64,000 nt of DNA from Escherichia coli (GTDB lineage Bacteria; Pseudomonadota; Gammaproteobacteria; Enterobacterales; Enterobacteriaceae), in assembly GCF_003334765.1 (NCBI RefSeq), contig NZ_QOWT01000004.1; one strand, given 5' to 3'. The notes under the pieces are model-generated. The model searched no databases. It was given only the letters and a program-made list of their open reading frames with translations, and was not told the origin of the DNA. Within the stretch, counting starts at the first letter, position 1. The number at the start of each line of letters is the position of its first letter. Positions 576 to 45,787 of this stretch are shown here, piece after piece. A program made the position numbers and the translations under genes.

Positions 576-860
576 ACAAATTCCTTACTGAAAATACTGC
601 GCTGCACTATACGGGGTTAATAAAATAAAGCCAGCGATATTTAAGACCGCCGGACGGCTAAAATAAAATTTGCTTAATCTCAATTATCATGCGTTAATAG
701 CTGCGTCGGTTTGAAAGACAGACAGCATACAAAGTAGTTTACTAAAGCAGTTCTCATTATCAGGCATTATCCCCTTCTTTTGAGTCTCTCTCCTGAACAC
801 TAAGTAGTTTCTGTATTAAAGCCCTGTTTGCCGAAAGGCCCAAAATGAAGGAAGTAAAAT

Positions 861-1073
861 ATGTCTAATAAAATGACTGGTTTAGTAAAATGGTTTAACG
901 CAGATAAAGGTTTTGGCTTTATCACTCCTGATGATGGCAGCAAAGACGTTTTCGTCCATTTCACCGCCATCCAGAGCAATGAATTCCGCACGCTGAACGA
1001 AAATCAGAAAGTTGAATTTTCTATTGAGCAGGGGCAACGTGGCCCCGCGGCAGCGAACGTTGTTACGCTCTAA
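861..1073 (+). CDS. cspG: Cold-shock protein CspG (70 aa)
   Basis: [26 protein letters not shown]... with canonical cold-shock domain RNP1/RNP2 motifs. Confidence 0.95.
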
Positions 1074-1272
1074 GGTTGCCATTATTACTCAACATCTCCA
1101 TTTCCGCTGTCCATGTTGTCATGGTTCACAGTACCGCACATCGGCATTCGATGTGACGGAGCGAAACCCTTTGGGCGCTAAGTGTATTTTTTGTAAATCG
1201 ACGATGATCACCTTTGATAACGTCGCGCTGCAAATACGCACTGACCATGCGCCGCTGGATTTCACAAAATAA
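1012..1272 (+). CDS. ymcF: Small zinc-ribbon-like ORF (CPCC...CIFC), probably ymcF; true start uncertain (ORF-track ATG at 1012 overlaps cspG 3' end; alternative TTG at 1060)
   Basis: ORF contains two Cys pairs (C-P-C-C and C-I-F-C) spaced about 22 aa, typical of a zinc ribbon; lies between cspG and ymcE as in K-12. Confidence 0.45.
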
Positions 1273-28704: not shown

Positions 28705-30213
<1,509 letters not shown>

Positions 30214-30511
30214 GGGACTTAGCCTGCGGCGGTTTTGTTTGGCTTCAGCAGCGGGTTGCGCTCCCTTAATGTGCCTCGCCATATAAATTGAATGGTGCAG
30301 GGAGCGCGCAGGGGGCGGCCAATCGCCGCCGCCCCCTGCTGTCCCGGCCTTCGGGGAACGCTTCAGCGATTTTGACGCCACCAACACCCGAGCTGTTATT
30401 ATGTTCCGGGCAAAAAGTTAGATTTGATAATCGCGGATGGACGAAATTGCTTGATACACCCGCTTATCAGTTTTACATGGAAGCTCTGATGCATTGAGTC
30501 TGGACAGTTTT

Positions 30512-30548
30512 GTCGGCTGGATACGGCGTTTACGCGGCATCCGGCAAG
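30512..30548. repeat. REP element (single palindromic unit)
   Basis: gtcggctggatacggcgtttacgcggcatccggcaag palindrome. Confidence 0.6.
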
Positions 30549-30678
30549 AACACATGGTTCTTTGCAAACAATCCCATCTTTCTACCCTGGAATAATCGTT
30601 TATATCCCTTGGCATTACCTCTCTTTGTTTACATTCCAACATCATTTTATAAACATTCCGCTTGTGTTTTTCTTTGCC

Positions 30679-30696
30679 GTAATGATAATCGCTATC
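30679..30696. promoter_or_regulatory. Fur box-like sequence (GTAATGATAATCGCTATC) upstream of efeU
   Basis: Close match to Fur consensus GATAATGATAATCATTATC about 60 nt upstream of the efeU start. Confidence 0.65.
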
Positions 30697-30755
30697 ACTG
30701 CGATTTACTTTTCTTTGCATAGATTGACTCAGAAAAACGTTTAAGGGTGGGTGGC

Positions 30756-31586
30756 ATGTTTGTTCCGTTTCTCATTATGTTGCGCGAAGGACTTGAAGCC
30801 GCGCTGATTGTCAGTTTGATTGCCAGCTATCTTAAGCGTACCCAGCGAGGCCGATGGATTGGTGTGATGTGGATTGGCGTGTTGCTTGCCGCTGCGTTGT
30901 GCCTGGGCTTGGGTATCTTCATTAACGAAACCACCGGCGAATTTCCGCAAAAAGAACAGGAACTGTTTGAAGGTATCGTGGCGGTGATCGCCGTGGTGAT
31001 CCTTACCTGGATGGTTTTCTGGATGCGCAAAGTGTCGCGCAACGTCAAAGTGCAACTGGAACAGGCAGTCGATAGCGCATTGCAGCGTGGAAATCATCAT
31101 GGCTGGGCGCTGGTGATGATGGTCTTTTTTGCCGTTGCAAGGGAAGGGCTGGAGTCGGTCTTTTTCCTGCTGGCGGCATTTCAACAAGATGTCGGGATCT
31201 GGCCGCCGCTGGGTGCAATGCTCGGTCTTGCTACTGCCGTGGTGCTAGGCTTCCTGCTCTACTGGGGCGGTATTCGCCTCAATCTTGGTGCATTTTTTAA
31301 ATGGACCAGCCTGTTTATTCTCTTCGTCGCCGCAGGGCTGGCAGCTGGTGCCATTCGCGCATTTCATGAAGCCGGATTGTGGAACCACTTTCAGGAAATC
31401 GCCTTCGATATGAGTGCGGTGCTCTCAACTCACTCGCTGTTTGGCACGCTGATGGAAGGGATTTTTGGCTATCAGGAAGCGCCGAGCGTCAGCGAAGTCG
31501 CCGTCTGGTTTATTTATCTCATCCCGGCGCTGGTGGCATTTGCTCTGCCACCACGCGCAGGGGCGACAGCGTCTCGCTCCGCGTAA
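30756..31586 (+). CDS. efeU: Ferrous iron permease EfeU (FTR1 family), apparently intact
   Basis: Uninterrupted 276-codon frame from MFVPFLIMLREGLEAALIV with two REGLE motifs (REGLEAA, REGLESV) and multiple TM segments. Confidence 0.9.
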   Translation: MFVPFLIMLREGLEAALIVSLIASYLKRTQRGRWIGVMWIGVLLAAALCLGLGIFINETTGEFPQKEQELFEGIVAVIAVVILTWMVFWMRKVSRNVKVQLEQAVDSALQRGNHHGWALVMMVFFAVAREGLESVFFLLAAFQQDVGIWPPLGAMLGLATAVVLGFLLYWGGIRLNLGAFFKWTSLFILFVAAGLAAGAIRAFHEAGLWNHFQEIAFDMSAVLSTHSLFGTLMEGIFGYQEAPSVSEVAVWFIYLIPALVAFALPPRAGATASRSA

Positions 31587-31643
31587 CAAATACGACGCAA
31601 ACTCTTGCTTAGTTACAACATACTTTAAAGGGATAGTCTCGTC

Positions 31644-32771
31644 ATGACCATTAACTTCCGCCGTAACGCATTGCAGTTGAGCGTGGCTGCGCTGTTTTCT
31701 TCTGCTTTTATGGCTAACGCCGCTGATGTGCCGCAGGTCAAAGTGACCGTGACGGATAAGCAGTGCGAACCGATGACCATTACGGTTAACGCCGGGAAAA
31801 CACAGTTCATTATTCAGAACCACAGCCAGAAGGCGCTGGAGTGGGAGATCCTCAAAGGCGTGATGGTGGTGGAAGAGCGGGAAAATATCGCCCCTGGCTT
31901 TAGCCAGAAAATGACGGCGAATTTACAGCCTGGCGAATACGATATGACCTGCGGTCTGCTGACTAACCCGAAAGGGAAGTTGATCGTCAAAGGTGAGGCA
32001 ACGGCGGATGCGGCGCAAAGTGATGCGCTGTTAAGTCTTGGTGGTGCAATTACTGCATATAAAGCGTATGTCATGGCGGAAACCACGCAGCTGGTGACCG
32101 ACACCAAAGCCTTTACCGACGCGATTAAAGCAGGCGATATCGAAAAAGCGAAAGCACTGTATGCACCGACGCGCCAGCACTATGAGCGTATTGAACCGAT
32201 TGCTGAACTGTTCTCCGATCTGGATGGCAGCATTGACGCCCGTGAAGATGATTACGAGCAAAAAGCCGCCGACCCAAAATTCACTGGTTTCCACCGTCTG
32301 GAAAAAGCATTGTTTGGCGACAACACCACCAAAGGGATGGATCAGTACGCTGAGCAGCTTTATACCGATGTGGTCGATTTGCAAAAACGCATCAGTGAAC
32401 TGGCTTTCCCACCTTCAAAAGTGGTCGGCGGCGCAGCCGGACTGATTGAGGAAGTGGCAGCCAGCAAAATTAGCGGTGAAGAAGATCGCTACAGCCACAC
32501 CGATCTGTGGGATTTCCAGGCTAACGTTGAAGGCTCGCAGAAAATTGTCGATTTGCTGCGTCCACAACTGCAAAAAGCCAACCCGGAACTGCTGGCAAAA
32601 GTCGATGCCAACTTTAAAAAGGTCGATACCATTCTGGCGAAATACCGTACTAAAGACGGTTTTGAAACCTACGACAAATTGACCGATGCCGACCGGAATG
32701 CACTGAAAGGACCGATTACTGCGCTGGCGGAAGATCTGGCGCAACTTCGCGGTGTGCTGGGACTGGATTAA
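31644..32771 (+). CDS. efeO: Periplasmic iron uptake protein EfeO (cupredoxin + M75 peptidase-like domains)
   Basis: 375-aa ORF with signal peptide, directly downstream of efeU. Confidence 0.9.
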
Positions 32772-32776
32772 GCGTT

Positions 32777-34048
32777 ATGCAGTATAAAGATGAAAACGGC
32801 GTGAATGAACCGTCACGCCGACGTTTACTGAAAGTGATAGGTGCACTGGCGCTGGCGGGAAGTTGTCCGGTCGCTCATGCACAAAAAACGCAAAGTGCGC
32901 CGGGTACGCTTTCACCGGATGCTCGCAATGAGAAACAGCCGTTTTATGGTGAGCATCAGGCAGGGATCCTGACGCCACAACAGGCCGCAATGATGCTGGT
33001 GGCGTTTGATGTGCTTGCCAGCGATAAAGCCGATCTTGAGCGGTTGTTTCGCTTGTTGACTCAGCGTTTTGCTTTTCTGACTCAGGGCGGAGCAGCACCA
33101 GAAACGCCAAATCCGCGCCTGCCACCACTCGATTCCGGCATTCTTGGCGGCTACATTGCGCCCGATAATCTCACCATCACGTTATCGGTGGGTCACTCAT
33201 TGTTTGATGAGCGCTTTGGCCTTGCGCCACAGATGCCAAAAAAGCTGCAGAAGATGACGCGTTTCCCCAACGACTCGCTGGATGCGGCGTTATGTCATGG
33301 TGATGTGTTGCTACAGATTTGCGCCAACACCCAGGACACGGTTATCCATGCGCTGCGCGATATCATCAAACACACGCCGGATTTGCTCAGTGTGCGCTGG
33401 AAGCGGGAAGGGTTTATTTCCGATCACGCGGCGCGTAGTAAAGGCAAAGAGACGCCGATTAATTTGCTGGGTTTCAAAGACGGCACTGCCAATCCCGATA
33501 GCCAGAATGATAAGTTGATGCAAAAAGTGGTGTGGGTAACGGCAGATCAGCAGGAGCCTGCGTGGACAATCGGTGGCAGCTATCAGGCAGTACGCTTGAT
33601 TCAGTTTCGAGTGGAATTTTGGGACAGAACGCCGCTGAAAGAACAGCAGACGATTTTTGGCCGTGATAAGCAAACCGGTGCGCCGCTGGGAATGCAGCAT
33701 GAGCATGATGTGCCTGATTACGCCAGCGACCCGGAAGGGAAGGTGATCGCGCTGGACAGCCATATCCGGCTGGCGAATCCCCGCACGGCGGAGAGTGAGT
33801 CCAGCCTGATGCTGCGTCGTGGCTACAGTTATTCACTGGGCGTCACCAACTCCGGGCAACTGGATATGGGGTTGCTGTTTGTCTGCTACCAACACGATCT
33901 GGAAAAAGGCTTCCTGACAGTACAAAAAAGGCTCAATGGCGAAGCGCTGGAGGAATACGTTAAACCTATCGGCGGCGGTTATTTTTTTGCGCTGCCGGGG
34001 GTGAAGGACGCGAACGATTATTTCGGAAGCGCGTTATTGCGGGTTTAA
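32777..34048 (+). CDS. efeB: Tat-exported DyP-type haem peroxidase EfeB
   Basis: 423-aa ORF with twin-arginine signal ([16 protein letters not shown]), DyP-type peroxidase family. Confidence 0.9.
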
Positions 34049-34392: not shown

Positions 34393-35457
34393 ATGGTAAC
34401 GTCCTGTACTGGACATGTTTTAGATAATCAACGCGCCACCACTCGCGGAGTTTTCTCCTCCGGTAGTCATCTCGTCACTTTGCATTTTCAACCTCATCCT
34501 TTCTTTTCATGTGTTACCGACGCCGTAAACGGTGCGCGTAGCCGTTTTTCGGCATTTTATCCAAAAGCAAACTATGGCTTACAAGGAAGCCAACCCTCTG
34601 ATGTTCGTGCGCATAATCGCGCTGCCAACGGCGCGTGTGATGAATACAAACAACTCAAGGTGCTCTCCATGGGAAGACAAAAAGCAGTGATCAAAGCTCG
34701 TCGCGAGGCAAAACGTGTGCTGAGACGGGATTCGCGCAGCCATAAGCAGCGTGAAGAAGAATCGGTCACCTCGCTTGTGCAGATGGGCGGCGTAGAAGCC
34801 ATTGGTATGGCCCGCGACAGTCGCGATACTTCGCCCATCCTCGCGCGAAATGAAGCGCAATTGCACTATCTGAAGGCTATTGAGAGTAAGCAGCTGATAT
34901 TCGCCACGGGCGAAGCCGGGTGCGGAAAAACCTGGATCAGCGCAGCAAAAGCGGCAGAGGCCCTGATACATAAGGATGTCGACAGGATTATCGTCACCCG
35001 TCCAGTTCTGCAAGCCGATGAAGATCTTGGCTTCTTACCTGGAGATATCGCAGAAAAGTTTGCTCCCTATTTTCGCCCGGTCTACGACGTGCTGGTCCGG
35101 CGCTTAGGGGCTTCCTTTATGCAGTACTGCCTGCGACCGGAAATAGGGAAGGTGGAAATTGCGCCGTTCGCCTATATGCGTGGACGTACCTTTGAAAATG
35201 CAGTCGTCATTCTTGACGAGGCGCAGAATGTGACTGCCGCGCAAATGAAAATGTTTTTAACCCGCCTCGGGGAGAACGTGACGGTTATCGTCAACGGTGA
35301 TATCACGCAATGCGATTTGCCTCGCGGCGTGTGCTCCGGATTAAGTGACGCGCTGGAACGTTTCGAAGAAGATGAAATGGTTGGGATCGTCCGGTTCGGT
35401 AAAGAGGACTGCGTACGTTCGGCACTTTGCCAACGTACGCTGCATGCCTACAGTTAA
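34393..35457 (+). CDS. phoH: PhoH, phosphate-starvation-inducible ATPase (PhoH family)
   Basis: 354-aa ORF with Walker A (GEAGCGKT) and PhoH-family C-terminal domain. Confidence 0.9.
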   Translation: MVTSCTGHVLDNQRATTRGVFSSGSHLVTLHFQPHPFFSCVTDAVNGARSRFSAFYPKANYGLQGSQPSDVRAHNRAANGACDEYKQLKVLSMGRQKAVIKARREAKRVLRRDSRSHKQREEESVTSLVQMGGVEAIGMARDSRDTSPILARNEAQLHYLKAIESKQLIFATGEAGCGKTWISAAKAAEALIHKDVDRIIVTRPVLQADEDLGFLPGDIAEKFAPYFRPVYDVLVRRLGASFMQYCLRPEIGKVEIAPFAYMRGRTFENAVVILDEAQNVTAAQMKMFLTRLGENVTVIVNGDITQCDLPRGVCSGLSDALERFEEDEMVGIVRFGKEDCVRSALCQRTLHAYS

Positions 35458-43635: not shown

Positions 43636-43981
43636 AGCGGCCTGGCACACGCGTTTGATGGAAGACGGCGTTCAGGCAATGCGCGATTATCTTGCCGGAC
43701 TGGATATCGCTTCGCCAGAGCATCAGGTTCTGATGAACGTAACAGCAAAAAGCGAGGTCGCTCCGTCAATTATCAAAGAAAATCTCTCATTACACTTAAC
43801 TCATACGGTGAAATGGACTGAATCTCTCGATACATTTCTGAATATGCCAACCCCGGTAGCTTTCCTTGAAATAAGTAATAAGCCCTATTTGGGGAATATG
43901 TTAAATGATTTTGCTGGCGTGGATCAGCAACGAGTTATGCATTGTCGTAAAGCATTTAGTGATGCAAAGGTATTCAAATGA
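43622..43981 (+). pseudogene. ymdE: ymdE, C-terminal fragment of a FabD-like malonyl-CoA:ACP transacylase
   Basis: 119-aa ORF alignable by eye to the C-terminal third of FabD (VKW/QWT, LEI/YEV segments) but lacking the N-terminal GHSxG catalytic region; overlaps ycdT 3' end and ycdU start. Confidence 0.6.
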
Positions 43982-44964: not shown

Positions 44965-45098
44965 GGAAGTGATAGGAAGTGACCAGATAATACATATATG
45001 TTCTGTACTCTCTTGCGCATTTTGATTGTTGACTGAGTAACCAGACAGTTGATGTGCACGATTTCCCCTCGCCCTAACAGACGTGGGCGGGGGCACCC

Positions 45099-45719
45099 GG
45101 TGTGTGCAATATACGAAAAAAAAGCCCGTACTTTCGTACGAGCTCTTCTTTAAATATGGCGGTGAGGGGGGGATTGACTCGCTTCGCTCGCCCTGCGGGC
45201 AGCCCGCTCACTGCGTTCACGGTCTGTCCAACTGGCTGTCGCCAGTTGTCGAACCCCGGTCGGGGCTTCTCATCCCCCCGGTGTGTGCAATATACGAAAA
45301 AAAAGCCCGTACTTTCGTACGAGCTCTTCTTTAAATATGGCGGTGAGGGGGGGATTGACTCGCTTCGCTCGCCCTGCGGGCAGCCCGCTCACTGCGTTCA
45401 CGGTCTGTCCAACTGGCTGTCGCCAGTTGTCGAACCCCGGTCGGGGCTTCTCATCCCCCCGGTGTGTGCAATATACGAAAAAAAAGCCCGTACTTTCGTA
45501 CGAGCTCTTCTTTAAATATGGCGGTGAGGGGGGGATTGACTCGCTTCGCTCGCCCTGCGGGCAGCCCGCTCACTGCGTTCACGGTCTGTCCAACTGGCTG
45601 TCGCCAGTTGTCGAACCCCGGTCGGGGCTTCTCATCCCCCCGGTGTGTGCAATATACGAAAAAAAAGCCCGTACTTTCGTACGAGCTCTTCTTTAAATAT
45701 GGCGGTGAGGGGGGGATTC
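45099..45719. repeat. Tandem direct repeats, 181-bp unit x 3 complete copies plus a 78-bp partial copy that continues into authentic serX
   Basis: Identical units begin at 45099, 45280, 45461, 45642; each contains a terminator hairpin plus A/T run and the 3'-terminal 19 nt of tRNA-Ser. Confidence 0.9.
45659..45686 (-). terminator. Rho-independent terminator of serX (hairpin with GAAA loop + U8)
   Basis: Minus strand reads gctcgtac-gaaa-gtacgggc followed by tttttttt immediately after the tRNA 3' end. Confidence 0.8.
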
Positions 45720-45787
45720 GAACCCCCGATACGTTGCCGTATACACACTTTCCAGGCGTGCTCCTTCAGCCACTCGGACACCTCACC
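45700..45787 (-). tRNA. serX: tRNA-Ser (anticodon GGA)
   Basis: Reverse complement gives GGTGAGGTGTCCGAGTGGCTGAAGGAGCACGCCTGGAAAGTG...GGGGGTTCGAATCCCCCCCTCACCGCCA: 88 nt, long variable arm, T-loop GTTCGAATC, CCA end. Confidence 0.95.

Follow-up and report, generated by a model that had tools for sequence, protein, structure and literature searches.

An intact efeU permease gene in a predicted Fur-controlled efeUOB operon of an Escherichia coli strain closely related to K-12

Can an Escherichia coli strain that closely resembles the laboratory strain K-12 be expected to possess a complete EfeUOB iron transporter, and would the synthesis of this transporter be controlled by Fur? EfeUOB is an acid-induced iron uptake system that imports Fe2+ at low pH when oxygen is present and iron is scarce, and its permease is a member of the EfeU/FTR1 family of polytopic inner-membrane proteins, for which seven transmembrane helices have been reported. 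We address this question for a 64-kb stretch of E. coli DNA (hereafter referred to as the window) and compare its efeUOB region with those of K-12, of O157:H7 and of the complete E. coli genomes (Table 1). Both the EfeUOB system and the contrast between K-12 efeU and the unbroken gene have already been known since 2006-2007 (Grosse et al., 2006; Cao et al., 2007).

The translation of efeU from its ATG codon begins with MFVPFLIMLREGLEAALIV, and the frame is closed by a stop codon at positions 31584-31586. A mechanically compiled list of open reading frames sets the start three codons earlier, at a GTG codon (position 30747); the ATG at position 30756 is the start annotated for efeU in K-12, in O157:H7 and in strain 720632. 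In a preliminary description of this DNA, an uninterrupted efeU frame of 276 codons had been noted along with the retention of both REGLE iron-binding motifs. Each of these statements holds: the frame is unbroken from the ATG to the stop codon ending at position 31586, and the two motifs (of the REXXE type) occupy residues 10-14 and 129-133 of the protein. Three profile models recognize the predicted product, namely the NCBIfam equivalog model for EfeU (NF041756; 331.2 bits against a cut-off of 255), the FTR1 family model TIGR00145 (351.7 bits against a cut-off of 303.8), and the Pfam model FTR1 (PF03239; 2e-89), whose match extends over residues 1-275 of the 276-residue protein. A crude Kyte-Doolittle scan yielded six hydrophobic peaks (approximately residues 1-23, 38-56, 70-88, 146-170, 179-203, and 248-266), while the segment around residues 115-135, which contains the second REGLE motif, stayed below the threshold of the same scan.

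Table 1. Positions of features within the 64-kb window.
Feature	Position	Strand	Remarks
efeU, intact Ftr1-type iron permease gene	30756..31586	+	831 nt; 276 aa plus stop
GG dinucleotide in codon 36 (GGT, Gly36) of efeU	30861..30862	+	K-12 has a single G (pairwise alignment)
Shine-Dalgarno-like sequence AAGGGTG	30743..30749	+	Read from the sequence; starts 13 nt upstream of the efeU ATG; invariant in the alignment
Candidate sigma-70 promoter	30662..30689	+	-35 TTGTGT (30662-30667), 16-nt spacer, -10 GATAAT (30684-30689)
Fur box CGTAATGATAATCGCTATC, predicted operator of the efeUOB promoter	30678..30696	+	15/19 match to the consensus GATAATGATAATCATTATC
CpxR-like box GCAAAGAAAAGTAAA in the efeU leader	30704..30718	-	9/10 match to GTAAA-N5-GTAAA
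efeO, periplasmic component (cupredoxin/M75 protein)	31644..32771	+	375 aa; NCBIfam NF041757, 479 bits (cut-off 270); PRK10378 full length
efeB, Tat-exported DyP-type (haem) peroxidase/deferrochelatase	32777..34048	+	423 aa; TIGR01412, 618 bits (cut-off 428)
cspA thermoregulator	705-1127		Rfam gathering threshold; position of K-12 cspG
naRNA4/CssrE, two ES036/CssrF copies, ES056 (csgD-csgB intergenic)	11810-11888, 17775-17817, 51387-51478, 61573-61615		Other Rfam matches at the gathering threshold
Other point differences from MG1655	125, 317, 3461, 7247, 13698, 14460, 19921, 20278, 25445, 25670, 42300, 45253, 45293, 45976, 51848		14 SNPs plus, at 125, a 1-bp insertion; the list is complete with the efeU G at 30861

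A further member of the FTR1 family is the iron permease Ftr1p of Saccharomyces cerevisiae, which shares with EfeU the full-length match to PF03239 and the pair of REXXE motifs. The two permeases differ in the company they keep: Ftr1p is the partner of the multicopper oxidase Fet3p, whereas the bacterial EfeU has EfeO and EfeB as its partner proteins. Ftr1p has been described as an oxidase-coupled permease, and its similarity to EfeU is low, amounting to about 25% (PMC3577903).

In the K-12 strain MG1655 (NC_000913.3), the corresponding locus b4490 lies between putP and efeO and is annotated as a pseudogene of 830 nt. Global alignment of the two genes revealed a sole difference, an extra G in the window at gene position 106; the loss of this one G terminates the K-12 reading frame after 36 residues. 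These data agree with published reports, in which the K-12 lesion is given as a 1-bp deletion in codon 36 (PMC3577903; PMC2808357). The preliminary description had regarded K-12 efeU as a frameshifted pseudogene, a view that is confirmed both by the annotation and by the 1-bp deletion in the alignment, which places the frameshift in codon 36 and finds the window free of it. With GG at positions 30861-30862, the window does not carry the cryptic allele of the K-12 type.

The entire window aligns with the MG1655 chromosome (approximately positions 1,050,676-1,115,865), with which it shares 99.97% identity and the gene order cspH/G, tor, cbpAM, rut, putA, putP, efeUOB, phoH, pga, dgcT, serX, csg, and opg. 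Point differences are found at 16 positions of the aligned 64 kb (14 SNPs and two single-base indels; Table 1). Across the segment 29400-35400, the extra G of efeU is the only deviation from K-12; the promoter, efeO and efeB show no difference at all, and the locus has the same chromosomal neighbours as b4490 in MG1655, with putA and putP on one side of efeUOB and phoH and pga on the other. The efeUOB region stems from an E. coli strain that is phylogroup-A-like and very close to K-12. Larger differences exist as well. IS3D, an element of about 1,264 bp located downstream of dgcT in K-12, is absent from the window, which has an empty site at 43640/43641. Furthermore, the first 74 nucleotides of the window cannot be aligned to K-12 and form the terminus of another mobile element, a multicopy one with 8,201 occurrences in 1,732 genomes, both chromosomal and plasmid-borne; we take the terminal sequence, whose reverse complement is GGAAGGTGCGAATAAG, to be an IS5 inverted repeat. 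In place of this end, K-12 has the sequence adjoining IS1D, an element positioned further to the left.

When segment 20000-44900 was compared with its best-matching genomes, all 25 of those listed matched in two or three pieces, and most of these matches spanned approximately 1,266 bp of extra DNA; these genomes seem to carry the insertion at the IS3D site, and the window would then be exceptional among its nearest relatives. Several other features of the window were recorded in passing. A perfect tandem array of a 181-bp unit (3.4 copies; 45096-45718 and 45703-45787) adjoins a tRNA gene (serX in K-12), and on the minus strand each full copy is recognized as RtT RNA by Rfam, barely above the gathering threshold (46.3 bits against 45); K-12 possesses the array as well, and two SNPs distinguish it from that of the window. 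Opposite to the 3' end of phoH, the minus strand (35259-35452) matches Ysr251, a family of Yersinia antisense sRNAs, with 189 bits.

Such a degree of identity raises the concern that the window is K-12 DNA with a sequencing error, a notion that is ruled out by the 14 SNPs, the second indel, the missing IS3D, and the different insertion element at the left end. The same set of differences speaks against the related proposals that the intact efeU frame stems from a base-calling artefact in a short run of G residues, or from a secondary reversion in a K-12 derivative, for which the 99.97% identity to MG1655 and the restriction of all changes in about 6 kb around efeU to one G could be invoked. 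The site is a GG dinucleotide and not a long homopolymer, the 1,051-nt efeU region has 100% identical counterparts in at least two genomes, and the same GG junction recurs in independent complete genomes, of which there are at least 4,953. Hence, we regard an artefact or a reversion as extremely improbable.

The latter number derives from a survey of 5,426 complete E. coli genomes, 5,418 of which contain the 1,051-nt efeU region; the product name given there is "iron uptake transporter permease EfeU". To distinguish the alleles, we used junction queries of 40 or 41 nt with the indel in the middle, which forces every 28-nt megablast seed to span it; these queries read the site of the indel alone and not the whole efeU frame. 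The intact junction of the window was found in 3,929 genomes, and a version of it with a nearby G-to-A SNP, as seen in divergent strains, in a further 1,024. At least 4,953 of the 5,418 genomes that possess efeU (91%) consequently have an intact junction, and about 98 efeU-bearing genomes match none of the three queries. The K-12 deletion junction was detected in 367 of the complete genomes, a collection that is enriched for laboratory K-12 strains; among those listed, the carriers were mostly MG1655, W3110, DH10B, MC4100, TOP10, JM83, and XL1-Blue, along with O16:H48 strains. For a few of these 367 genomes, the label names an animal, a food or a patient as the source of the isolate; these could be wild members of the K-12 clone, laboratory contaminants, or transconjugant recipients. 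An unbroken efeU gene is the ordinary state in the majority of E. coli strains, and the broken copy of K-12 is the well-known exception.

The most parsimonious reading of these sequence comparisons is that the strain studied here would have kept the ancestral efeU allele, while the permease would have been lost in K-12 through the deletion of one G. Since the ancestral allele resides in a window in which, IS content and the non-aligning left end aside, no more than 16 positions of the 64 kb deviate from K-12, the K-12 frameshift could be very recent and private to the K-12 clone, possibly having become fixed around or after the time of isolation and domestication, and the strain would then represent a natural near-isogenic 'repaired K-12' in which EfeUOB could be studied. 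We put this scenario forward tentatively and consider it rather doubtful.

The tripartite layout of the EfeUOB system is complete: efeU is followed by efeO and then by efeB, which encodes a DyP-type peroxidase with a Tat signal, all in the same orientation. A twin-arginine motif (SRRRLLK) is present near the N-terminus of EfeB. Over their full lengths, efeO and efeB are identical to K-12 b1018 and b1019, respectively, and both of these K-12 genes are annotated as coding sequences, unlike efeU. The order efeU-efeO-efeB is shared with O157:H7; efeU (ycdN) of O157:H7 and of strain Nissle 1917 is known from the functional low-pH Fe2+ transporter EfeUOB (Grosse et al., 2006; Cao et al., 2007, as cited in later papers). 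Nothing of substance sets the window apart from O157:H7, in which the Fur box and the leader of efeUOB are the same; differences are found in the flanks, which are K-12-like in the window, and in the putP-efeU spacer upstream of about position 30620.

The amino acid sequence of EfeU is 100% identical to that of the O157:H7 strain Z892, with five synonymous nucleotide differences between the two genes, and RefSeq uses one accession (WP_000497942.1) for this protein and for EfeU of strain 720632, whose DNA is 100% identical to that of the window over positions 30600-31650. According to later papers that cite the two primary studies, EfeU has been characterized as a ferrous-iron transporter (Grosse et al., 2006) and a functional EfeUOB system has been reported in an O157:H7 background (Cao et al., 2007). 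Because the protein is identical to the O157:H7 EfeU protein, and in view of the literature on that system, there is a strong case that EfeUOB would transport iron in the strain studied here.

The chemical nature of the transported iron is under debate; proposals range from Fe2+, via Fe3+ generated through oxidation by EfeO, to haem iron delivered by EfeB (PMC3577903; PMC3852070). The operon might accordingly be intact and yet have the extraction of iron from haem in the periplasm as its main role, with EfeB acting as a deferrochelatase that feeds EfeU, in place of the uptake of free Fe2+ at low pH. In O157:H7, EfeUOB has been found to promote the release of haem iron in the periplasm and its transport to the cytoplasm (PMC3577903), and EfeB is annotated as a deferrochelatase/peroxidase both in K-12 and by RefSeq, a role that is also mentioned in PMC3852070. 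Against haem as the main source stand the data of Cao et al. (2007) and Grosse et al. (2006), as summarized in PMC3577903 and PMC3852070, according to which uptake of Fe2+ depends on a complete EfeU protein and takes place under acidic, low-iron, aerobic conditions. We therefore judge a primary role in haem utilization to be unlikely; the two activities are, in any event, not mutually exclusive.

The control region of the operon is identical to the efeU promoter of K-12. The preliminary description had pointed to a close match to a Fur box about 60 nt upstream of efeU, and our analysis bears this out: the 18-mer reported there (GTAATGATAATCGCTATC; 30679-30696) forms part of the 19-bp site listed in Table 1 and leaves 59 nt before the ATG. 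This site is the best one in the 64-kb window and the only one with four or fewer mismatches, when 0.15 such sites would be expected by chance per 64 kb, as estimated from first-order Markov randomisations of the window that approximate its dinucleotide content. We also aligned the 175 nt preceding efeU from the window, K-12, O157:H7, and strains S5 and Z1323HEC0067, the latter two of which are both approximately 2.5% divergent. The Fur box is invariant in all five sequences, and so is the stretch from the box to the ATG, with the exception of a single base; the sequences that precede the box are, by contrast, strongly divergent across the compared strains. An invariant box and leader next to divergent upstream DNA is what would be expected of an operator and a leader under constraint.

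A match with four mismatches to a 19-bp consensus could nonetheless be a chance product of AT-rich intergenic DNA, which inflates such matches, and the operon would then be free of direct Fur control in this strain. We consider this very improbable, given the low number of sites expected by chance, the status of the box as the single best site of the window, its location 59 nt before the start of an operon for iron transport, and its invariance in divergent strains whose upstream DNA differs. Moreover, the identical K-12 promoter drives efeU and efeO, both of which are assigned to the Fur-2 iModulon in K-12, and the efeUOB operon has been described as Fur-repressed (PMC3577903). We infer from this that efeUOB would be subject to Fur-dependent regulation in the strain studied here.

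The location of the promoter can be suggested with less certainty. A strict scan of positions 30200-31700 for sigma-70 promoters returned none, the TTGTGT/GATAAT pair falling below its threshold; in a relaxed scan of positions 30640-30756, this pair scored 8/12 and was one of two equal-best hexamer pairs. The GATAAT sequence within the Fur box may perhaps serve as the -10 element and, if so, binding of Fur to the box would occlude it. The 3' half of the Fur box is overlapped by a stem-loop (AATCGCTATCACTGCGATT; 30687-30705) that precedes a T-rich tract and is invariant across the compared strains. We rejected it as a transcriptional terminator, because three terminator-like matches were found where 2.4 were expected, and attribute it either to chance or to a part of the operator. 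No known RNA family was detected by an Rfam scan of the putP-efeU spacer and the efeU leader at the gathering threshold.

Downstream of the Fur box, the leader contains a CpxR-like box (Table 1). Six matches of this kind were found in the window, as compared to 4.3 expected, so that the box is a positional lead that is not significant when taken alone; it is suggestive because of its position, its invariance, and the published CpxAR control of efeUOB. This control has been reported to consist of repression by CpxR (PMC3852070), and a published listing names efeU among the genes that are negatively regulated by CpxR in K-12.

The spacer between putP and efeU (30214-30755) is 542 nt long in the window and in K-12 and 219 nt long in S5 and Z1323HEC0067; homology to the latter two strains starts near position 30653, a short distance before the Fur box. 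Within the additional spacer DNA, there are a perfect 12-bp GC-rich palindrome (30308-30339) and a REP-like sequence near positions 30510-30545.

Taken together, we consider it highly probable that the region represents the wild-type efeUOB operon of a close relative of K-12, with the ancestral efeU allele, a function in the uptake of Fe2+ under acidic conditions, and control by Fur and CpxAR. EfeU would operate as an Ftr1-family iron permease of the inner membrane that binds iron via its two REGLE motifs, and it would cooperate with the periplasmic EfeO protein and the Tat-exported EfeB protein in the uptake of Fe2+ at low pH. When iron is plentiful, Fe2+-loaded Fur would bind to positions 30678-30696, a site that overlaps the candidate -10 element, and would thereby repress transcription; the CpxAR system may add a layer of control that responds to pH and envelope stress. 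The binding of Fur and CpxR and the position of the promoter are predictions made from the DNA sequence. Annotation and modelling of this strain should include a presumably functional EfeUOB system under predicted Fur control. Being nearly identical to K-12, the strain is a convenient natural reference for assessing what the efeU lesion does, and conclusions about iron uptake that are drawn from K-12 miss a transporter that is present in most E. coli strains.
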